From Rhizophagus irregularis (taxonomy: Eukaryota), in assembly GCF_026210795.1 (NCBI RefSeq), contig NC_089432.1:4340001-4404000 (forward strand): a DNA stretch of 64,000 bases, given 5' to 3'. Positions 5,895 through 51,465 of this stretch are shown piece after piece. Position 1 is the first letter of the stretch, and each line of letters opens with the position of its first letter. Made by a program: the position numbers and the translations under genes. The notes under the pieces were generated by a model that saw only the letters and a list, made by a program, of their open reading frames with translations, made no database searches and had not been told where the DNA came from.

Positions 5895-7044
5895 ATTGTA
5901 AGCGGTGAGAAATAAAAGTGGTATTAGTGTATGGGAGTATCGCTTATATTAATTTCAGAATTATAATTTCCGAGTATTGTCGATCCATGTGGTGTAACAT
6001 ACTCAATAATAGGGTATTAAGTTGTATTATGTCAATCAAAGTTTACCGATGATGATCACGGAAATTATCATTTGACGCTTTAATACTCAAAAATTTTATT
6101 TATTAAACCATTTCATAAAATAAATAGTATGAAATGGAATACACATATTATTAATTTCTTATCAATTATAAATTATTTAAGTTGGTCTTTTTTTTAACGG
6201 AAATTTGCTAAACGTCACATACATATTACATAATTTCTTTATTTGATAAATACATAACGAATTTATTGTGAGAAATCCAAAGTCAAATTTTTGCTGGAAA
6301 ATTTTAATTTGATCATTTATTATTGAGAAATTATTTTTGGTTTATCTACTTTTAAATTTAGATAATTAAATGGGTCGGATACCATAGAAGTAATGTTTCT
6401 TGCTAAAAATTTTTTGATTTTTTTTGGCTGATTAGCTGGAATCACTTACGTATTACATTGATTTATTATGTCAATCTTAAGACTATTAGAGCGCTAAAAA
6501 AAGAAAGTTTTTCAATATTCAATACTTTACAATTTTTAATTTTAACTATAAATAAATTATTCCGAAATAAAATTGGTATTTCTACAATTTACCGTATATT
6601 TTTTTTCATCGGTAAAATGTTTATCATAAAAAATAAAAAAACGAGGAAAAAGAATTTGAGATCAAATCATTCCAAAATAAGTTTAGATAATTTTAACTAA
6701 ATAGTTTATTTTGAAACAAGGTATAATTGAAACTTGGAGGCTTAACTCCGAAGTCCACTAAAATGACGTGACGATGTACAATATAGATTATAAGTTACTC
6801 ATATCAGTCATATGAATAACAAGTGAGTCACAACACGTCATGAGTAATTGAGTATATAATTTAAAAAAATATAAATATCTTTTATCTTCTTTTTTTTCAT
6901 CTTCTTTATCTTCTTTTTTTTAGGTCTATTTTTTTCGTCCAGGTCTTCTCTTTATTAGGTCTCTTAGGCTCCTTTCTTTACGTCTTCCTTTAGGTATGTG
7001 GGTTGGGAGTGTGGGTTTGTGTTGTGTGTTGGTAGTGTGTGTAT

Positions 7045-7930
7045 TTTTCGTATTCCCTCCTTCCCTTCGTCTCCCTTTCCCTTTCGTACTCCCCTTTCCT
7101 TTTCGCCCTTTTCGTACTCCACTTCCCCTTTCGTATTCCCCTTTCCCTTACGTTCTCCCCTTTCGTTCTCCCCTTTCCCTTTCGTATTCCCCGTTCCCTT
7201 TCGTATTCCCCATTCCCTTTCGTACTCCCCATTCCCTTTCGTATTCCCCATTCCCTTTCGTATTCCCCATTCCCTTTCGTATTCCCCTTTCCCTTTCGTA
7301 TTCCCCTTTCCCTTTCGTATTCCCCTTTCCCTTACGTTCTCCCCTTTCGTTCTCCCCTTTCCCTTTCGTATTCTCCGTTCCCTTTCGTATTCCCCTTTCC
7401 CTTTCGTATTCCCTTTTCCCTTTCGTATTCCCCTTTCCCTTTCGTATTCCCCTTTCCCTTTCGTATTCCCCTTTCCCTTTCGTATTCCCCTTTCCCTTTC
7501 GTATTCCCCTTTCCCTTTCGTATTCCCCTTTCCCTTTCGTATTCCGTATTTCCCTTTCCCTTTCGTATTCCGTATTCCCCTTTCCCTTTCGTATTCCCCT
7601 TTCCTTTCGTATTACCCCTTTCCCTTTCGTTCTCCTCTTTCGTATTCCCTTTCCCTTTCTTACTCCCCTTTCCCTTTCGTATTCCCTTACACTTTCGTAT
7701 TCCCCTTCCCTTTCGTATTCCCCTTTCCCTTTCGTATTTCCCTTTCCCTTACGTTCTCCCTTTCGTTCTCCCCTTTCCCTTTCGTATTCCCCCTTTCCTT
7801 TCGTTCTTCCCTTTCCCTTTCGTTCTCCCTTTCCCCTTCGTTCTCCCTTTCCCCTTCGTTCTCCCCTTTCCCTTTCGTATTCCCCTTTCCCTTTCGTACT
7901 CCCCTTTCCTTTCGTTTTCCCCTTCCCCCC
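7045..7930. repeat. Polypyrimidine minisatellite, unit about CCCTTTCGTATTCCCCTTT
   Basis: Dozens of ~19 bp units read directly. Explains the stacked low-complexity ORFs on both strands at 6964-8028. Confidence 0.95.
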
Positions 7931-19086: not shown

Positions 19087-19916
19087 TCCAATGAATTTGT
19101 TTAAATAGAACAATTTAGTATTATAATGTAAATTAAAGATGGACTTTATTCATTGTCTTATGTTTTTCGTATTTGTCGGCACCTTCTGTCCTTCTTGCAT
19201 CATTCAATATCATCGGCTATTGTAGCCGTTATTTCTTCCTCTAAAACTGGCTTCTTCTATATCCATTGTAGTGCCATAAACCCAGAATTAACTTTAGTTT
19301 AAATAATAGAGTATTTCGGAATTATAAGGATTATCTATATTTTGTGTAACATTGATAGTCCGAAGTAATTTGGATCAGAAATGAAGATCATCCTATTAGT
19401 AATAATGATGTAATAAGTTACAATTAATTTACGTTGATCAAAGGATTAACATGTAAATTATTATAACTTTTTGACTTAGTATTAGTAGTTCCTTTTTCTT
19501 AGAAGTTTTTATTAGTTCCTTTTAACTCCTTTTATTAAAAACAAGTCTTTTTAATTATCATAATTATTCTATAATGTCCTGACGAAATTTTATGATTATA
19601 TTATTTTACATTTATAAATAACTGTGTTATGATGACATATATAATAAAGAATAAACCTTTTATTAAATTATAAATTTTATGACTTTCATCAGCAAGTTTG
19701 AAAAGTGTTGATTCACACCAGTATACGCGTTGATCAACACCAGCTAGTTGTTCAACGCGTTTTACAATATTAATCAACACCCGTATACTAGAGTATATTA
19801 ACGCATAATGCTAATATACGCGTTGTTCAACTCTAATGTGTAGTTCAACACATTATGCATTGTTGTTCAACGCGCTGTATATTAACACTTAATTAAATTA
19901 AATTATATTTATTTTT

Positions 19917-19992: not shown

Positions 19993-20553
19993 TTTAAGTA
20001 TATATTATATATATTAAAATTAATATTTAAAAAAAATTATTTCGGCATTGCGTAATGTACTCTATATCATGTGTATCACGTGATAATGGATTATTAATAA
20101 TTACCGCTGCGGACTGCGGTATGGCGAAAAAAAATTAAGCTTTTTTTAGCAAAGCTTAATTTTTTTTCGCTTCTCTTTCACTTTCGTTCTATTTCTCCTT
20201 TCACTTTCGTCCCATTTTCCCCCTTTCACTTTCACTTTCACTTTCTTCCCATTTTCCCCTTTTACTTTCCCCTTTCACTTTCGTCCTGTTTCTCCTTCCA
20301 CTTCGTCCCATTTTCCCTTCATTTTCTTCCCGTTTTCTCCTTTCTCTCTCATTTCATTTAGTTCCCTTCACTTTTCTTTCCATTCTTCCTTCGTTTTCCC
20401 CTTTCCCTTTTCGTTCCTCCTTTTCTCTTTCGTTCTGCCCTTCCAACTCCCGTAAAATGAGCTCCATTCAACGGAAATGTAGATAATTTGATAAATTCCG
20501 TAATATAAGGTTATTAATTCCAGAGATATAAGCCTTTTACGGAAAAACTTTTG

Positions 20554-21653
20554 GTAAGTTTCGCAACGAAACGTTGCGAAACTATTTTTCATTTTCTAAC
20601 GAAACGTTGTTTAACGTTTTGAAATAATTTTTTTTAAATTTATTTAATCGGAACGTTATCTAACGTTCTGATTATTTATTTTCTTTTATTTTTTTAATCG
20701 GAACGTTGAAAAACGTTCCGAAATATAATTTTTTTTAATTTCTTTAATCGGAACGTTGGCTAACGTTCCGATTATTTTTTTATTTTATTTTTTTAACGAA
20801 ACGTTGAAAAACGTTTCATTTATTCTTTTTTTTTAACTTCTTTAATCAGAACATTGGTTAACGTTCCGATTTACATTTTTTTCTTGTTTTAATGAAACGT
20901 TTTTAACATTTCGTTATTAACTTTTTTTTCATTCCTTTTAATCGGAACATTGAAAAATGTTCCGATTTACATTTTTTTTCTTTTTTTAACGAAACGTTTT
21001 TAACGTTTCGTTAATAACTTTTTTTTCTTTTTTTTAATCGGAACGTTGGCTAACATTCCAATTTTTTTATTTTTTATTCTTTTTTTAACGAAACGTTTTT
21101 AACGCTTCGTTAATAACTTTTTTTTCATTTTTCTTTAATCGGAACATTGGCTAACGTTCCGATTATTTTTTTTTATTCATTTTTTTAATCAGAACATTGA
21201 AAAATGTTCCAAATTATTATTTTTTTTATTTTTTCTTTAATCGGAATGTTGGCTAACGTTCTGATTCTAGTTATTTTCTTTTATTTCATTTTTTTAATCG
21301 GAACGTTGAAAAATGTTCTGAAATATTAATTTTTTTTTCATTCTTTAATCGGAACGTTGGCTAACGTTCCGATTAATTTTTTTATTTCATTTTTTTAACG
21401 AAACGTTGAAAAACGTTTCAAATATTCTTTTTTTTAAATTTTTTTAATCGGAACGTTGGCTAACGTTCCAATTTTTTTTATTTCATTTTTTAACAAAACG
21501 TTTATTAACATTTCGTAATATAATTTTTTTTTTAATTTTTTTCAATCGGAACGTTGGCTAACGTTCCGATTTTTTTTTATTACATTTTTTAACGAAACGC
21601 TTATTAACGTTTTGTAATTTTTTTTTTCATTTTTTTTTCCTTTCTTCTTTTAG
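20554..21653 (+). repeat. Tandem array of ~22 palindromes (period ~50 bp) filling a putative intron
   Basis: Units AATCGGAACGTT-ggct-AACGTTCCGATT and AACGAAACGTT-n-AACGTTTCGTT separated by T-rich linkers. Starts at GTAAGT (20554) and ends at a pyrimidine tract plus TAG (21653). Confidence 0.9.
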
Positions 21654-22790
21654 GTCAGCGGGTGGGCTTTCAAGTTCTGAAGAACGGAAAACCAAGATTC
21701 GTAAGATAAGTACGAATCTTGGTTTAATTTTTTTTTCTTTTTTTTTTTAATATTATTAATGAACGGTTACTAATAACCGTTTTTTTCTTTTTTTAGGTTT
21801 CGGGTGGGCTTCCAAAGATCGGAAAACCCCAAAGATTCATAAGTAAGAATCTTCATATATATATTTTTTTTGTTTTTTTTATTAATGAACGGTTACTAAT
21901 AACCGATCTTCTTTTTATTTTTTTAGGTTCGGTGGGCTTTCAAAGAACGAAAACCCAAAGATTCGTAAGTACGAATCTATATTTTTTTTTGTTTTTTTAA
22001 TTTTATTAATGAACGGTTACTAATAACTATTCTTTTCATTTTTTTAGGTTCGGGTAGCTTATGGTCTTTGGAAAAAGTGGAACCAAGTTTCGTATTACGA
22101 ATCTTGGTTTTATTTATTTTTTTTTTAATATTATTATAAATGGTTACTAATAACCGTTCTTTTTTTTTGTTTAGGTTCGGGTAGTTTTCCAAAAATCAGA
22201 GGAACCAAGATTCGTAAGTATTCCGAATCTTGGTTTTAATCTTTTTCTTTTTTTAAAAAAAATACTATGGACGGTTACTAATAACCGTTTTTTTCTTTGA
22301 TTTTTATAGGTTCGGGTGATTTCCGACGAATGGATGAACCAAGATTCGTAAGGTATGAATACGAATCTTGGTTTTATTATTTATTTTTTATTATTATTTT
22401 GGAACGGTTTACTAACCGTTCTTGTATTTTTTTTTATAGGTTCGGGTGGGCTTCCGAAGAACGGAAAACCTAAAGATTTGTAAGAAATCTTTACTTTTTT
22501 TTTATTTTTTTAATTTTTTTATTATTACAAACGGTTTACTAACCGTTCTTGTATTTTTTTTTTAGAAGTTCAGGTGGGTTTCGGACAAACGAAGGAACCA
22601 AGATTCGTAAGTACGAGTACGAATCTTGGTTTTTGTTTTTTTATTATTATTTTGGAATGGTTTACTAACCGTTCTTTCTTTTTTTATAGGTTCGGGTGGG
22701 CTTCCGAGTTCCGAATAATGGAAAAAAAAACCAAAGATTCGTATTATGATACGAATCTTGGGTTTTTTTAATTTGTTTTTTTTATCTATT
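21654..22790 (+). repeat. Nine ~130 bp tandem units, each resembling a micro-exon plus intron
   Basis: Unit: tttag|GTTCGGGTGGGCTTCC..AACCAAGATTC|gtaagt..acgaatcttggttt..aacggttactaa(t/c)..aaccgtt..ttttag. Exon-like blocks start at 21654, 21797, 21927, 22048, 22175, 22310, 22440, 22566 and 22690. Confidence 0.88.
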
Positions 22791-23559
22791 TTTTATAGGT
22801 ATCCGGTTCCTTCAGCGTTGGACTTTTAATTAGATTTCTCAACGTTAGACATGGCGTTGCTGTAGATTAGCATTTTGGAATGAATTGGTAAGTTTTGAAT
22901 AAAACTTACATTTTTTTATTTTATTTTTTTTATTTTTTTTTTAAATTTCTCTTTTCTTTTTGTAGTCCTCAGTCAGATTTTTAGAATAAGATTGTGTAAG
23001 TTTCGTTAACGAAACTTAATTTTTGTGTTTTTTTTATTTGAAACCTTATCTTGTTATGGTTGTGTTACCAGGGGCGCTTTGTCAATGGAAATTTAGTACG
23101 TTGATCGCTTAAAAATCCGCGGCAATCCAATTATAACAAGAGGAATTGATTTTTCATTAGATAATTTGATAATTTAATGTAATTTGTATTGTAACTGTAT
23201 TTATAAATAAATTTACAATTAATGAAATGTTAATAATATACAATAATATATATATTAATAAATTAATACTATTAAATTAACTACATTGCTATACGCGTTT
23301 TTAATATCAATATACGCGTTTTTATACATTATATACACGTTATTAAACTAGTGTTATTTTACTGTATGTTGTTTTACACATAAAACACTGTTGCACTACG
23401 CGGTTTTCAACATTTTTAAGTGGTGTTGATTGACAAAGGGTTTGTATCTTTACACTTTTTGGTGTTGAGCAACACATGGCATTTTTCAACACTTTATACG
23501 CCTGTTTAAAACTTGCTGATGTTATGAAAGAGACGAAATTCTTGTGGTGACAGAGTGGC

Positions 23560-24800
23560 AGAAGCTGTCATTGCACCATTATATTCTTGTCATCATCCAT
23601 TGATTGGTATATGATTTGCTCCTGTTGCATGTTCATTTGTTGATTGTTGTCCATGATGACTGTTGTTCTCACATTCGTTTCCATTGTTATTATTCCTTGG
23701 TTTATATTTATCATTGTTGTAGTTTCCTCTATTTCCATTGAATCTTCTGTTTGTTTTATATTTTCCTTCGTTGCCACTGTATGACTGTATCTATTTCTTC
23801 CATTATAATATCTTTCTCTATATCTAGTCTTTTCATTATAAGTTTGATATTATCATCTTCTGTTATCAAATCTTCCTACTTTATTGTCGTAACCTCTTTG
23901 TCCTTTACTGTAAGAATTTGATCTTTGTCCATAACCACGAAAAAACTGCTGTTTATTATAATAATAATTTTCTTGCGTTAGCCATGTATATTTCTCTGAG
24001 TCACTTTTTGTATATCATAATAATGACTCTTAAAGTAAATTATTAAATCAAATCTGTTACTCCGTCCATATCTAGCAATAAACCATGCATTTCTTGGATA
24101 TTTATGTTTTCGTTGAATCCCATAATTGTTGCTCTAAATTGTGAACTCATTTCTTTTTGTCTTTGAGTTAATCTAGCTGGTGTAAAATTAACTCCTATGT
24201 TTAAATTCTTTATTTGTAATGACCATGTTTCGAAAAATATTCTGTCTGTGCACATGACTCGTAATTCAACTTGTGTTCTTCAGAATTAATATTTTCAAAT
24301 TATGCCCACGTGAGCGATTGATTCAGTTAAATTATTTTTGTCAATATTATTAGTCTTATAAATTTTCCTAGTTTCTCCTGAATTTCTTTGTGTTCGAGAT
24401 ATTTATTCCTCAATTATTTGCGCAGGTAAACATTTGTCCGATTTAAAAAAAAAATAAACATTTGTCTGATTCTCACACCCATATTAGTAATTAGTAATTG
24501 ATAAACATTCTTTTCTATCATCATCGTTATATTGTGTCTCATATTTTTGGAATTACAGTTTTTAGTAGTTATTAGTTCTGTGTATCAAATTATCTAAATT
24601 TAGTGGTTTATTTCTTGTATTCAAAACTATTTGAGCTTTCTGATGTATATGTCGATCATTCATCATTAATTGTTCTTTCCCTTTATTGTTATTATTCTTA
24701 TGGTCAGAAGTCATTTCCATCTCATTATCATAATCCACATGTCTTCCATCTAGACTTTCCCAATCAAGAACTTGTCTTCTTTGTAGAGAATATTTGAAAG
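23560..24800 (-). pseudogene. Fragmented ORF, possibly a retroelement ORF1/RRM-like relic
   Basis: Intronless coding-like minus-strand fragments (WSLQIKNLNIGVNFTPARLT..QFRATIMGF) with several stops and frameshifts. The family call is by resemblance only. Confidence 0.35.
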
Positions 24801-25159
24801 GTTAAATGCGCCGTTTTTATTACTATCATATATTTGGCTAGCTTTAGATGCTTGTATTTGGTTATTGTAGTTCCCTTGTTCTGTTGCCAGTATGTTTCTT
24901 TGGATCTACATTTTTATAATAATTGTCAAGGTCACTTTCTAGCGCCACTACTCTATTTTGTAAAAATGTGTTCTCAGCATTATTGATATCTAGAAGGATC
25001 ATTGCTATTAAACTGAATATATGATAGTTTTAAAACATTCACATCTCCAGTATCAGAAACAAAATATATCAAGCTTAGATAGTCATATTATTCATCTAAA
25101 AGTGTAGTTGTCTGCTATCTTACGTGAAATAAACTTCCATTCTCTAGCTTGCCAGGAAT

Positions 25160-26500
25160 TTATTTATATGGTAGATGTGGTAGATGAAAATTTACCTTTT
25201 TATTAGGCTCTTCAGGTGGAATATCATTAATTTTTGCCAAAAGTATTCCACGAATGGTCGCAAATAGTTTGGTTACTTCACTTTTAAGGTGTTCATCATT
25301 AACCTTAACTTTGTGAAGTCCGAGTATCAAAGGCTCTTTGGTTACTGCCACAAATTTATTTTTGAAAGTGACCATTGTGAAGTACCACTTATCTCCTGTC
25401 ATTACCATACCATATACATATTCAAAATCATTTTGATCTCTTTTTCTCTTGAGATCTTTAAGGTTGTGCTATGTGTGGAATTTTATAATTTTTAAATTCA
25501 CAATTCATACTTAATACAAATAAAGGAATATAATACTTACTTGACAGGCAGTTTGCACTTGAATAAAATTTTCACAAAATCCATACTCTAAATCCACAAC
25601 CTTAACTTCTGTCACACAGAATATTTTTTTAATGTATGTAATGGCAAAATCTGTATGACCTTTCCCGTAAGTACCAGATATATTAAATTCCCGATGCATC
25701 TTAATATTATAATTTTTGTCAAATGTTGAAACCACTCCACGTAAAATAGTTGCAACAAAATCTGTGCGTTCTGCCTCATTCTCACATTTGTCTAAGCTTC
25801 CAGATGTTTTTAAGATTAGCTTAAGAAAATCAGTATGAGTTAGTGAAATTAAACATTAACCATACAAACACAACTGCATGATATAAAAAGATTTTGAAGC
25901 AAACCTTTATGTAAGCTACAGCCAAATTGATATTGTCATCGTATAATGACATATCCGCACTAGGTGCTTAAGAAGAAAATAAAAGTCAGAATTACAATTA
26001 AAGCTACTAATTATCAGATTACTTACGAAGTTCTAACTGCAGCAATTCGTTCATTCTCTCTATTGATACCCCAAAGATAGACTCCAATTGTAAGAACTTC
26101 TTATAGGCAGAGTTCATTCTCTCTATTGATACCCCAAAGATAGACTCCAATTGTGAGAACTTCTTATAGGCAGAGAAATCTTGTTGTGCTATATAAAGTA
26201 ATTAAAAATATCAGAAATGATTGAGTTAATGCATGGAAATGTAGTTTTACAGGTGGAAAAATGATGTATTAATTAGAATAAAGTTAAATACTTACAACAT
26301 TCCACTTTGAAAGAAATTTGTTTTAATTTCTCATTATGATCAGGATGGGCTTCCAGGAACGCTATAAGCCCATCCTGATCATTAATTTTTGCAATTAAAT
26401 TAAGTGGAATTATCAAAATTGTTGATGCATCAATGTCTTGCAACAACTTACCATATTCATTTTTTATTTTTATGGTAAGTTGTTGCCAGACATTTTTCAT
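25160..26500 (-). CDS. PD-(D/E)xK restriction-endonuclease-like protein (Crinkler-type REase C-terminal domain), 5 exons
   Basis: GT-AG splicing (26500-26296, 26188-26027, ~25966-25905, ~25820-25541, ~25468-25160) gives one open frame with NEAERTDFV..E..ISG..GKGHTDFAI..VTEVK..G..NFIQ..VYGMVMTGDKWYF. Confidence 0.75.
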
Positions 26501-29374: not shown

Positions 29375-30501
29375 TTCAGGTTGTCACGATGCCTAAAAAT
29401 TGACGATGACTCACTTTGTTGCCAATCCATCGAACAACCATTATCTCTTGAGGTGGCATTCTTACCTAAATTTCTACGCTGATTTCTTTGTAATTTTCCA
29501 TCTTAGTTTATAAAATCGTCTTGTTCTTTAACTTGCAATCCAATTCCATAGTCTTCACATCTCCACGAACCTCCTGTCGCGTTCCTTAAGGCGTTCTCGC
29601 CTTTGAAATACAAAATGATGTGGCGAGCCTTACAAACTCTAACTATTTTCCCAAAAAATGCCGTATATTTATTCACATATTCTTTGATAATTAAACTATC
29701 CACTTTCGAATTATCATCCGCTATTCTTTTACTTGCTTGCCAGCAAAATTTATTTCTCATTTGATGATACGTCAATCTTGAATCAAACATCCTAAAGAAA
29801 AATTTCCGATTATTCTTTGTGATCGACACGTTAACGCCACCATCTTTGTATATTTGTTCGTAAGCATTACTAAAATGAATGTGGCATCTAACCGTCTTAT
29901 ATTTATAGCATCGTTTGATTCGCATACTTTTAATTAGTCCTACATTATTTATCAAACGTTCGTAAATTTCCATATCGCTCCAATACTAAGGAATATCGTA
30001 AAACGTGATATCACGTGACATCTCGGCAAAATTGTACACGCTTCCTATTACGATTCGATCTTTTTTTTTGTTGTAGTCTCGTTATGACTTCCATAACAGT
30101 ATTTGCCACTGATTTCCCATTACTTCCTTGAGCTTTGAATTTTCCCCGTATCCTGTTATTTTCTTCCGTTTTTTCCAATATAATTCGTTCCTTTGCCGTT
30201 ACATCAGCTTCTAGATTTTTTGATGTCGTCATTTCCCTTAGCTATGATTTGTTCTTTCACTTGCACTTCGGCTTCTAAATCTCTAACTCTGGCGTTTAAA
30301 CTAACTATCCGATTTTCATAATCAATGATCATTTCTTCAAATACCTTGTGTTCTTTGGTCCAACTTTAGATCTCTTGCTGTTACGTCAGCTTCCAATTCA
30401 CTAATTTTATCTTGTAGATCTTTGCTTCCATGCGCAGTAAAATTCTCACGAAATATATTTTCTATTATTTTCTTGAGGACCTCTCCGCTCCATTTTGCCA
30501 T
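29375..30501 (-). pseudogene. Degenerate coiled-coil plus RRM-like ORF (possible mobile-element ORF1-like gene)
   Basis: MAKWSGEVLKK.. with repeated LEADVTAR/LEAEVQVK/LEADVTAK segments, then ITFYDIP*YWSDMEIYERL.. Intronless; broken by stops near 30337, 30239 and 29986. Confidence 0.45.
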
Positions 30502-31922
30502 GAATAACACTATAAAATAATACACCGAAGAAACTTTCGTCTCTCGTTTGTTAAGCCGTATAGGTGTTTTACCCGGTTTACTAAAAGCGTTCAGTCCCAA
30601 AGTCTTCTTTTCGTACTCTATATATTCGTCTACTTTTTTAAGCTCTAATATATCACTATATATTTTGTCGTATATATCTTAAAACTGTTCATAAAACTCT
30701 TTCAAATAAAGTTTGGTATCAACTTCTATGAGCTCCTCACAAGTTTCTTCGTTTGTTTGCGTCATATTTTTATGTTTTGTTAAGCGTTTTATATATAAAA
30801 ATATGTTTTATTTTTCTCGTAAATTTTTGGTATTGAGGATCGTCAGCCATTTCCAGGGTATTCACTTCATCAAGTACCGATCCCCAAATATATGTAACAA
30901 ATAAAAGTTTAAAGTTATTACCCACCGTTTCCACGATAAAATATCTAAAAATGAAACACTAAAATTCCCAAATAAAAACAAAATGGTAGTTTAACGTCAT
31001 TCCGGACCTTAAATGATCCCTATCTATTACCACACTTGACCATCCTAATTCCCATATTAATGATAGTTTAAGGCAGCAAATTAAAAACACTTTACACTTA
31101 AACTAATACAATACTGCGCCCAAAATTAATATATTCACTAGACACATTACTTAAAATAGATAATTATAATCATGCTTTTTCGATTTCGGAAATTATAACT
31201 AGTTTATGATGGCGAACTTCAACATTGGTGATCAGGAGGTGGAAATGAGTTTTTTTTAAAGACTTTCATCAATAGATAGATTGTATTATATAAATAAAAA
31301 TATAAAAGTTATAATTTCTTATACATTTTTATTCATATTAATAATATATTTGTAAAAATTTAAAAATTTACAAGTTTTGATATAAAACAAAGTTTATTAA
31401 TGTGAAGCGCTTATAACAATTTTGATTTATTATCACAAACAAATTTAAAAAAGTATCAAATAAAAAAATTTAGCATATCAGATATCGTCAAAAATATTAA
31501 AAATAAAAAGATATTATCAATAATAAAATATTATATATCGATATTAATAAAAAAATATGACAATTAAATTTTTCAAGTGGTGTTAAATTGCATGATTTCC
31601 ATTAACCTTAATTATTATTTTCATTAATAAAAAGTATAAATAACTAATAAAAATTATTATGTATTAAATAAATAATATATTAATTTTCTAACAAGCTAAA
31701 TAGAAAAAAAAATAAGCAAGAGTAACTAGCAAATTATCCGATTTTTGATATGATAAAAAAAGTTGCATAATAAATCTTACGATTATAATTTTCTTTATAA
31801 TTTAAATTTATACATTAATTTATTTTCTAAAACGTGATAATACTGTCTTACTAGTTATTAGTATAAAGAAATGTTTATGTAAGTACAGAGCTGTGAGCTT
31901 AATAAATAATTATTCGTTTTCT

Positions 31923-48713: not shown

Positions 48714-51024
48714 AATGAAATAAATATACTGTAAAATTTTTTAAAATAAGCTTGAAGCAAAAAAGCAGAAAAAAAAATATTTTTGGAATGGTCTCTGAAA
48801 TTCTATTTATAAAGTTATATTATAAACATTATGTAACCAAATAATTCATTAAGTAATCTATCTCTAGTACAAACTAATTATTGTAGAGTAAAAAACAGGC
48901 AATAACTTTTTTCTGTTTGGTAATCTGTTGTACTCTTTAAAATACTGTATTACAATTTTTTGTGTCAAAATGATGATCATATCCCGGAATGCATTAGATC
49001 ATTGACAATCATATCTTAAAATGAAAAATTGTGCGTTTTTATGGATTAGTTAGTGCATTTTTATGGATTAGATTTCTAACCATAACGATAAGTCCAAATA
49101 ATTTTATATATATGTTAGTATAGTAGAGCAATTAATTCTTATCCCCCCTTAGTTAGAGCTTTATTTTTGTAACTCGCGTTTTGTATCTTTATTTTAAAAA
49201 TAAATTTATGAGTTGAACCTTAAAAAAAAAAAAATAGCAAAGCTAACGTTTTTTAGATTTTTTTTGATTGAAAAAGGAAATAATTTTCTATTTTTGCTTT
49301 AATTTATTCTCTTTTCGTAAAAAACTTTTTTTTTTGTTGAAAAAAAAAATAAAAAAAATTTATATATTTTTTTTTCATGAAAAAAATTTATAAAAATGAA
49401 AAAAGGAAATGGGTTTCCTTTTTAATTTATTTTTTTTTCCTTTGTAAAAATTTTTTTTCGTAAAAATCAAATAAAAATTTATAAAATGAAAAAGGAAATG
49501 GGTTTCCTTTTTAATTTTTTTTTTCTCTTTTGTAAAAAATTTTTTTTGTTAAAAACTTTACGAACTCTTTCCGCTAAACGTCTGGACCATATTTTTTGAA
49601 AAAAAATAATTTTTTATTTTTTATTTTTTTATTTTTTCGCTTATTGTTTATACACTTTTATTTTATTTTTACATACTTCAAGCAAAGTCTTGACAGCAAT
49701 GAAACCCATAGCGGTTTTATTTTAGTATAGCCAAAAATTTTTATTTTATTTTTTGGACATTTCTTACGCGTTTTTTTCTCTCTTCTTTGTGGTGTTCCTG
49801 GACTCAAGACGGTCTGGAGAGGCGTATTGCCTAGAATAAGCAAGCTTTGAGATAACGACAAGATGTGGACACTCTTAAGCTACCTTTTTTAAGCGGAAAA
49901 TAATACCTTCGACATACTATTATTATAATCATTAATTAATGTGAAATAATTAAATTTAACACTACCAAAAATAAATTTCTTTTTTTTTTCCTGAAAAACT
50001 AGAATTGAGACGCACCGGACCTTCTAACTGTTTCATCGCTAGTTTATTACTTAATTATCATTTGTAGAATCATTTAATTTAATTCAAGAATTAAAATTCA
50101 AATTCAAAATAGTTTTTAATGCAATTATATAGTAAATAATTCATATATAGTAAAGGATTTTACTGGTATATTATATATTGCTTTTTCAACATTCATGGCT
50201 TATTGTAAGGAAATACTTCTAAGGAACAAAAGTTTAATTCAAATTAAAAAGTTGAAGTTTATAGAAAATCTGTCCATAATTCTTTATTTAATTTAGAGAA
50301 AAGAAGAACATATATGAAAATTTTCAATAAAATGGAGAATACGGTACATTATTTTTTAATCCCTTATTTTTCTTCATAATACGAAATTCTTATTGAGGAT
50401 TATTTTTTTTAATAAAACCAAATAAAAGCTTATGGTTTATCACTAAATGGCTATATTATAAGTTACCCGCTACGACGCTACGTTTAACTTCGAAAATAAT
50501 GACTAAAGTCACGTATGCAGAATAGACCAATAAGAAAGCAGAATAAGACTGGGATATAAATTAATAAAATGGCAAGTTGATTAGTATAACTAAAAAGTTT
50601 TTTTACGCTGCAATTAACAGTAATGTATATTTATTTATTGTATATATTTAATTAAGTTTTTATATTACAGCGTTAACAAATTTTTAAAATAATGACCAAT
50701 TATGTACCTTTAAAATCAGTTATAAATTGTAAATGAATTAAAATTAAAAATAAAAATGGTTGTTATATCGGTCATGAATTATTTTTTTTTTTATGATGGA
50801 TAACAAGACAAGATTTTCTCATTTAATAATGTTTAAGACGAAATATCTTTTATAATAATATTTGTTAATATTTCCTTAATTATTTTTATTTAGTTATTGT
50901 TATTTATGATGTGATTCGTTTCAATTAATTAATAAAGGCACCAAAATCTGATTTTAAAGTCTTTAAATGGACTAAGGATAGGTTGATAATATATACATAT
51001 ATATATATATAGTTTTTACTTCAA

Positions 51025-51141
51025 ATCACCGGGGGTGATCATCACCGTTGGCCAGAATTATCAATTTTTACCGGCACTATATTTTTTTAATGCTGGTCGA
51101 TTGTCATAATTTCAGTCACCGTTGATCATCACCCCGGTGAT
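51025..51141. mobile_element. 117 bp fold-back element
   Basis: atcaccgggggtgatcatcaccgttgg.. is mirrored by ..cagtcaccgttgatcatcaccccggtgat; imperfect pairing extends over most of the length. Confidence 0.7.
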
Positions 51142-51465
51142 AGTTAGGAAAATTCATTTTTTTGCATTTTATCATAAAATTATATAATAGAACAACTGTT
51201 TACAGAACCTATAAATGAAATTTTTTTTTTTAACGTAAAAAAAATAATCTTTTTTTTTTCATGCATATCACATATCATAAATTGAGGTGGTACATTGTTG
51301 TTTTATGTAACATTTTTTGGGTTACGCTTGGTGAACTCAATAAATAGAATTTCGGAGTCATAATTCCAGCTCAGCCTTTCTATTCTTTTTTTTTTTTGTT
51401 TCAAAATCCATAACAGAAAAATTTATTTTAAAGAAATTAAACCTTTATACAGTATATATTTCATT

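Follow-up and report, generated by a model that had tools for sequence, protein, structure and literature searches.

The window that we analysed is the whole 64,000-nt stretch of Rhizophagus irregularis contig NC_089432.1 (positions 4,340,001 to 4,404,000), with a GC content of about 24%. It carries kinase and Sel1 genes in tandem, as recognised by Pfam, and a neighbouring gene for an F-box-like protein whose clusters are 100% eukaryotic, with Mucoromycota as the commonest group. For R. irregularis, expansions of kinase and Sel1 genes are on record and unclassified repeats are reported to make up 24% of the genome (10.1101/2021.03.30.436303). The subject of this analysis is a probable repeat element in this setting, the core of which is a series of nine tandem exon-intron units preceded by a leader and a long predicted intron and followed by further predicted exons. 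The coordinates of all these features are collected in Table 1.

Table 1. Features of the probable element and of its tandem units, in window positions (L004 is one of the four metagenome loci described in the text).
Feature	Coordinates	Strand	Remarks
Left end of probable element	19687..19900	.	17-nt terminal motif and ACGCGT/TATACGCG cluster
Perfect palindrome	20124..20170	.	47 nt, 16-bp arms; directly upstream of the CT-rich leader
CT-rich leader and predicted first exon	20171..20553	+	matching layout in L004
Predicted intron 1	20554..21653	+	1100 nt; hairpinned GTAAGT donor, then tandem hairpins
Unit 1	21654..21796	+	exon 21654-21700 (47 nt), intron 21701-21796 (96 nt)
Unit 2	21797..21926	+	exon 21797-21842 (46 nt), intron 21843-21926 (84 nt)
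Unit 3	21927..22047	+	exon 21927-21964 (38 nt), intron 21965-22047 (83 nt)
Unit 4	22048..22174	+	exon 22048-22091 (44 nt), intron 22092-22174 (83 nt); GTATT donor
Unit 5	22175..22309	+	exon 22175-22213 (39 nt), intron 22214-22309 (96 nt)
Unit 6	22310..22439	+	exon 22310-22347 (38 nt), intron 22348-22439 (92 nt)
Unit 7	22440..22565	+	exon 22440-22479 (40 nt), intron 22480-22565 (86 nt)
Unit 8	22566..22689	+	exon 22566-22606 (41 nt), intron 22607-22689 (83 nt)
Unit 9	22690..22798	+	exon 22690-22740 (51 nt), intron 22741-22798 (58 nt); without branch hairpin
Non-repeat exon and intron	22799..22965	+	exon 22799-22887 (89 nt), intron 22888-22965; donor self-paired, homologous to the first donor of L004
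Exon and predicted intron	22966..23071	+	exon 22966-22995 (30 nt), predicted intron 22996-23071; donor self-paired, acceptor is the first downstream AG
Predicted last exon	23072..23262	+	AATAAA at 23206 and 23257
Right end of probable element	23290..23521	.	ACGCGT/TATACGCG cluster; inverted terminal motif ends at 23521

The nine units of about 130 bp described by the sequence-only reading, an earlier annotation made on the letters of the DNA, are all present, each with a GC-richer block of 38-51 nt and a GTAAG or GTATT donor. The blocks, considered here as exons, have a GC fraction of 0.41-0.49, and the introns between them run from GT to AG in 9/9 units, starting with GTAAG in seven and with GTATT in two, with TACTAAT or TACTAAC in eight of the nine. 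The signals of a U2 spliceosomal intron (GT donor, YTRAY branch, pyrimidine tract and YAG acceptor) thus occur in the right order and at the right spacing. In unit 2 the GT at the stem position is mutated, and a GTAAG lies 4 nt downstream, in the loop. The units are arranged head-to-tail as a tandem repeat with a period of 126, 7.6 copies and a match of 73%, and no further unit was found in the window outside the array. Since they are tandem copies, we counted them as one design and not as nine independent events, and in this respect the earlier count, although every unit in it is real, has to be read differently.

The sequence-only reading overlooked the make-up of the first intron (20554-21653), which consists of 21 hairpins in an array. 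These are tandem hairpins of about 50 bp (20585-21636, tandem-repeat period 50/99), 15 of them with YTAAC; loops with and without YTAAC roughly alternate, and the observed/expected ratio of CpG is 4.3. Only 3 AG dinucleotides occur inside intron 1, a scarcity that is due to the repetition of an AG-free unit. At the other side of the units, the AATAAA copies of the predicted last exon correspond to AAUAAA, which is reported to be the predominant poly(A) signal in R. irregularis (10.1101/2022.10.19.511543).

The two ends of the element match each other in inverted orientation at 16/17 nt (19687/23521), a score equalled by 5 of 514 control windows. Five of the six ACGCGT copies of the window and 4/4 of those of TATACGCG lie in these two ends (clusters at about 19720-19870 and 23290-23400). 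The ACGCGT clusters carry what we take to be the sequence of the yeast MCB box and are possibly transposase or transcription-factor sites. As for a target duplication, matches of 2 nt only were found (TT or AT, depending on the end chosen) and none of 3-10 nt. No second copy of the element ends was found in the window, the flanks of three metagenome loci (L001, L002 and L004) did not match them, and the shell was found in this one copy. The element has no transposase of its own, its internal ORFs being short low-complexity frames, and a Pfam search of 10 ORF fragments flanking it gave no match and hence no transposase neighbour. Two candidates were rejected: a 400-nt inverted repeat of the ends, obtained by permissive alignment, fell under stricter scoring with controls, and CACTAG in L004, considered as a CACTA-type terminus, fits better as a donor of the opposite strand. 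The earlier suggestion that the array is transposon-borne is weakly favoured by the inverted match of the ends, with the control frequency given above, and by the ACGCGT cluster that they share, and from its sequence we consider the element a probable non-autonomous DNA transposon. It resembles in its surroundings the non-autonomous DNA transposons of R. irregularis, since DNA transposons of this species are reported to adjoin kinase and Sel1 genes (10.1101/2021.03.30.436303) and both kinds of genes are present in this window, further off from the element.

Several other repeats were observed in the window. Positions 6880-7930 hold an acceptor-like tract, a short exon and a GTATGT donor, followed by a 0.9-kb CT-rich array of 19-bp repeats that is open in several frames and resembles the CT-rich leader at 20171-20440. 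Two perfect palindromes with 16-bp arms stand side by side at 26336-26382 and 26440-26486, outside the element. Broken frames on the minus strand (23530-25000 and 29500-30700), without a Pfam match, look like a decayed repeat-borne ORF and bear a resemblance to a retroelement ORF1. A 130-bp internally palindromic repeat at 51013-51142 is 95% identical to the flank of the metagenome locus L002, and represents another dispersed family.

We folded the region from -20 to +32 around each donor and compared it with 200 shuffles each. As had been claimed, most donors lie in a stem-loop formed with the end of the exon: strong stems were found in 7/9 units (z from -4.8 to -7.5), and the folds were weak at the donors 21843 (z -2.5) and 22480 (z -1.9). 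The stems pair positions -8 to +2 or +3 and leave +4 to +6 open, and the donors have a non-consensus TTC at -3 to -1. Donor folds of -17 kcal/mol or lower occurred in 6/9 units vs 0 of the 1008 donor-like sites of the window outside the element, only 3 of which reached -12. Self-pairing was also confirmed for the flanking donors at 20554 (z -5.3), 22888 (z -2.3) and 22996 (z -2.4), the last of which had been placed at 22997, one base inside. The hairpins at the branch point beat their shuffles in 8/8 cases (z from -2.4 to -5.6). The earlier placement of the branch motif in the loop of a second hairpin in eight introns holds for the presence of motif and hairpin in all eight, but not for the loop in the three TACTAAC units, where TACT forms the loop and the branch A falls within the paired 3' arm.

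An exact-pattern scan of metagenome contigs with the donor hairpin gave 4 loci, all from soil, and runs of the unit, with 72-76% identity, occur in 4/4, so that the repeat is multi-copy as the sequence-only reading had supposed. The flanks of L001, L002 and L004 are unlike each other and unlike the element ends of the window. In L004 a CT-rich leader is followed by a hairpinned first donor, a single branch hairpin and then the units, and intron 1 of the window is, to judge by the sequences, an amplified form of this single branch hairpin. Among the anchored introns of the five loci, 25/27 have a branch hairpin, a length of 75-96 nt and a TAG end 16-32 nt past the branch A, where the first AG was taken as the 3' end by construction. 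Anchoring on the stem arms, with no requirement for GT, gave 28 unit stems (8/36 raw matches were discarded as not being unit stems), of which 26 show GT in the donor position and 21 show GTAAG, with spacers of 3 to 17 nt. As the GT belongs to the stem, its conservation is tied to that of the palindrome. The exon is copied along with the intron in 26/26 units examined. No match to the branch-hairpin pattern was found in prokaryote genomes, and none to either the branch-hairpin or the donor-hairpin pattern in viral contigs.

In L004 we also observed a second, sequence-unrelated set of micro-exons (L004:1101-1366, + as stored, opposite strand to the units) facing away from the array. Its exons of 36 and 42 nt encode similar short acidic peptides, and the introns preceding them have TACTAAT in a different hairpin. 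This set may be a micro-exon gene that codes for protein and uses the same promoter region.

In coding micro-exon genes the exon lengths are divisible by three and the frame stays open. We rejected this class for the tandem units, as multiples of three make up only 9/26 exons and stops occur in all frames. Exon lengths modulo 3 are distributed as 9/8/9 of 26, that is, randomly, and among the nine window exons only 2/9 are multiples of three, in accordance with the earlier remark that most are not. The form spliced in silico has stops in all three frames and no ORF, which agrees with the non-coding character proposed before. In snoRNA-host or mirtron-type genes the intron holds a C/D or H/ACA RNA, or forms one end-to-end hairpin. 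Here, Rfam gave 4 weak matches, all far below the gathering score, a C or D box was found in 0/10 introns and an ACA near the end in 1/10, and the folds of the excised introns were weak (-2.3 to -16.2 kcal/mol), with local stems only and no end-to-end hairpin. The earlier idea that the excised introns are the product finds no support in these results.

For the RNA evidence we considered four of the 24 raw-read runs listed under the species label (X6, X21, X22 and X24; X1-X5, X7-X20 and X23 were left out), and reads were aligned to positions 22530-22762 (233 nt), which hold one whole intron (22607-22689). In the poly(A) runs X21 and X22, 426 and 596 of 11.05 million reads each were aligned (39 and 54 per million), which places the family in poly(A) RNA, in line with the transcript proposed by the sequence-only reading. 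The aligned reads came mostly from other copies, those with at least 99% identity to the window copy being 34 in X21 and 45 in X22, and both read directions were about equally frequent, so that the RNA may come from either strand. The depth of the window copy was about twice or more the 11x expected if the whole read sample were DNA of a 147-Mb genome (the size for R. irregularis), so that DNA carry-over is not the explanation, unless many nearly identical copies of it exist. Runs of A occur on the antisense strand, and through these oligo-dT could capture antisense RNA. At position 22572 the window has A, whereas G is found in all the near-matching reads from X21, in most of those from X22 and in the X6 contig; either the strains differ here or the window sequence contains an error.

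The depth was flat over the acceptor AG at 22689 (148/155 vs 147/152 in X21) and the loose ends of reads continued into intron sequence, hence most of the aligned reads are unspliced. Precisely, we required at least 3 reads for a clean joint between 22606 and 22690, and none was found in X21 or X22, with position 22572 covered by 21 and 32 reads, respectively; joints with 18-nt sides were detectable, as the joints seen have sides of 18-34. The search for junctions in RNA reads, which had been proposed as a check, thus gave no clean junction at the unit 8 intron of the window copy. The X6 contigs with 0-1 differences from the window copy (records 1 and 8) are unspliced too, X6 being RNA only by our guess, and X24 gave 23 reads and no joint reaching that number of reads, with a mixed loose-end consensus that may hide spliced reads.

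Intron-less forms were found in 11/426 (X21) and 20/596 (X22) reads, about 3% of the aligned reads, and they came from other copies. In 3 (X21) and 7 (X22) reads the donor region passes straight into the next exon-like sequence, and these parse as use of a GT four bases on, in the open loop; tandem donors four bases apart are reported to be common in human (PMC2423196). In 8 (X21) and 13 (X22) reads and in one X6 contig the motif of the exon 5' end recurs 9 letters on, in three variants, and one X6 contig has an exon end directly joined to an exon start. The intron-less reads could also come from DNA copies with deletions or short duplications. The alignment favours unspliced reads, in that spliced reads of other copies give anchors of 12-18 nt, and the true spliced share may be much higher. 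In favour of a multiply spliced RNA, some intron-less junctions of other copies fall at the predicted boundaries; as a description of the main form the claim has found no support so far, since most aligned reads keep the introns and the whole intron of this copy gave no clean junction.

As to what maintains the stems, the donor stem covaries at 6/13 pairs, with 18 cells vs 7.2 in shuffles (0/500), and the covariation of the branch stem is not above the shuffles (127/500); in both cases the aligned rows are related to each other and were picked by motif. Mismatches in the donor, branch and intron-1 stems were 18 G-U vs 24 A-C (p=0.44). An excess of G-U is thus absent, and with it any preference for pairs tolerated only by the sense RNA. 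Moreover, one unit of L002 has its loop inverted, and one unit of L001 keeps a perfect stem with two double changes after having lost GTAAG. Polymerase template switching is reported to give both homogenisation of arms and inversion of the spacer (PMC8604942). On account of the missing G-U bias, the inverted loop and the perfect stem lacking a donor, we read the stems as self-repairing DNA palindromes, and the apparent compensation in the stem sequences reads as at least partly mutational. The structure-controlled splicing that had been proposed is not borne out as selection on an RNA fold, because of the absent G-U bias, the branch stem indistinguishable from shuffles and the signs of arm repair.

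We give about even chances to the reading that the window copy is a tandem repeat of exon and intron, transcribed but poorly spliced, which lies in a probable non-autonomous transposon and in which the masking of splice signals by hairpins is a by-product. It starts from what was observed: how the units are built, that they form a family without coding capacity, that RNA reads match this family, and that the introns are retained among the aligned reads. A module of one exon of about 40 nt and one intron of about 85 nt with palindromic tips would have been tandemly amplified inside a transcribed non-autonomous repeat, whose two ends would be the transposon termini, and a Pol II promoter near the CT-rich leader would drive sense transcription. 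Template switching in the DNA is likely to keep up the palindromes around the splice signals, and these would hide the 5' splice site and slow down splicing as a by-product. Poor splicing would result from the pairing of the donor's exon side together with the non-consensus TTC at -3 to -1, and this masking would cause the intron retention. Some splicing may escape via the loop donors, that is, the second GT four bases on, and the few intron-less reads would be its products. The RNA of the family would then be a selfish or near-neutral by-product and not a dedicated regulator. Against this reading it has to be considered that covariation of the donor stem would also follow from selection on the RNA.

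The same covariation is among the arguments for a selected decoy RNA, in which many branch points and half-hidden donors bind SF1/BBP, U1 or U2 without finishing splicing, the RNA acting either as a Gomafu-like sponge for splicing factors or by stalling spliceosomes and so setting off small RNAs directed at the carrier transposons. We consider this unlikely. In its favour are the retention of introns among the aligned reads and the 15 YTAAC hairpins of intron 1 with 3 internal AG; moreover, the branch-in-hairpin arrangement recurs with at least three stem sequences, including the micro-exon set on the other strand of L004. Precedents are reported for the binding of SF1 to tandem UACUAAC repeats in Gomafu (PMC3116199) and for siRNA production from stalled spliceosomes in Cryptococcus (PMC6643885). 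However, a decoy agrees poorly with the absence of a sense-strand G-U bias, with a branch stem that equals shuffles, with the pairing of the branch A in the TACTAAC units and with the about equal read directions, and the scarcity of AG in intron 1 is explained by the repeated AG-free unit. Its broadest form, to which we give a slightly lower and clearly small probability, is that AM fungi carry dispersed, transposon-borne 'splice-signal display' RNAs, hairpinned intron arrays on which spliceosomes load and seldom finish. Such RNAs would titrate U1/SF1 or seed RNAi against their carriers, and different shells would have amplified one cassette, either as the donor-plus-branch unit or as the branch hairpin alone.

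Two readings that pull in opposite directions appear to us quite improbable, and equally so. In one, the locus gives an efficiently spliced multi-intron non-coding RNA whose hairpins pace splicing and whose chain of exons either decays quickly or escapes the aligner, the introns either raising expression or being the product. The preservation of splice signals over 25-28 units in five loci, the several sequence variants at one boundary among the intron-less reads and the bias of read sampling towards unspliced reads go in its favour, as does the cumulative increase of mRNA with intron number reported in Cryptococcus (PMC3744415). Yet exons of 41 and 51 nt suit the aligner and still no junction reached 3 reads in X21 or X22, the X6 contigs near-identical to the window copy are unspliced (with X6 as RNA a guess), and in the introns neither a C/D box nor a mirtron-type fold was found, nor an Rfam family at the gathering score. 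In the other, the array is simply a minisatellite at the DNA level, made up of palindromes that bind proteins, and its splice motifs are left over from the single ancestral intron that was duplicated. No splicing would take place, and the reads would be due to read-through or to antisense RNA, rich in A, that oligo-dT captured. This would fit the strand-symmetric decay of the stems, the loop inversion and the donor-less perfect stem, the equal read directions and the presence in the element of a palindrome away from splice sites (20124-20170). It leaves unexplained that the loop keeps GTAAG in 21/28 units while its length varies sixfold, that the branch motif stays at a fixed distance from TAG, that the intron-less joins coincide with predicted boundaries, and that non-repeat exons, more donors and AATAAA follow in the same direction.

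In our literature searches no paper described such a layout in its title or at the start of its abstract, and repeat libraries or supplements of R. irregularis may hold its consensus as an unclassified repeat; in the R. irregularis paper the main text has neither 'intron' nor 'splic', and unclassified repeats were excluded from its expression analysis (10.1101/2021.03.30.436303). The anatomy of the window repeat is real and undescribed, as a variant of the transcribed tandem repeat. It provides a readable anatomy for one family from the unclassified quarter of a model mycorrhizal genome, and a natural array of more than 25 variants of one intron in which 5' splice site and branch point are buried to varying degree, so that available RNA-seq, once a genome is mapped, can show how local structure affects splicing in fungi. 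It also calls for caution in claims of covariation, since template switching in DNA can mimic compensatory change around splice sites. If the decoy or RNAi trigger were true, it would be a new interaction between a repeat and the spliceosome in a symbiont with a large small-RNA system.

As regards known systems, the fungal introner-like elements and the sister (stw)introns of Hypoxylon are likewise repeated, related spliceosomal introns with palindromes or predicted hairpins; each of them is described as a single, seamless insertion in a coding gene, the genes being unrelated, and as folding end to end (PMC8469720). The window units, in contrast, copy exon and intron together, in tandem and in a non-coding context, with short local stems, one of them spanning the exon-intron junction, and they show neither unrelated exon contexts nor symmetry of the whole intron. 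Quasi-palindrome template switching is described with arm homogenisation and spacer inversion, both of which occur in the stems of the family; it is a mutational process and not an element, and in the window family it acts on splice signals (PMC8604942). Stalled-spliceosome RNAi (SCANR) on transposon transcripts of Cryptococcus also concerns repeat-derived transcripts with poorly spliced introns in an RNAi fungus, whereas the window introns are palindrome-masked tandem copies in another phylum, so that the comparison is an analogy only (PMC6643885); the same holds for the cumulative effect of introns in Cryptococcus (PMC3744415). The Gomafu/MIAT lncRNA shares with the window family the non-coding character, the many tandem branch-point motifs (here 15 YTAAC hairpins in intron 1 and 8 TACTAAY in the units) and a possible role as a sink for splicing factors (PMC3116199). 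Gomafu is reported as one gene of vertebrates, with its repeats in exons and with demonstrated SF1 binding (PMC3116199), while the family described here is multi-copy and fungal and has hairpinned motifs in complete sets of donor, branch and acceptor.
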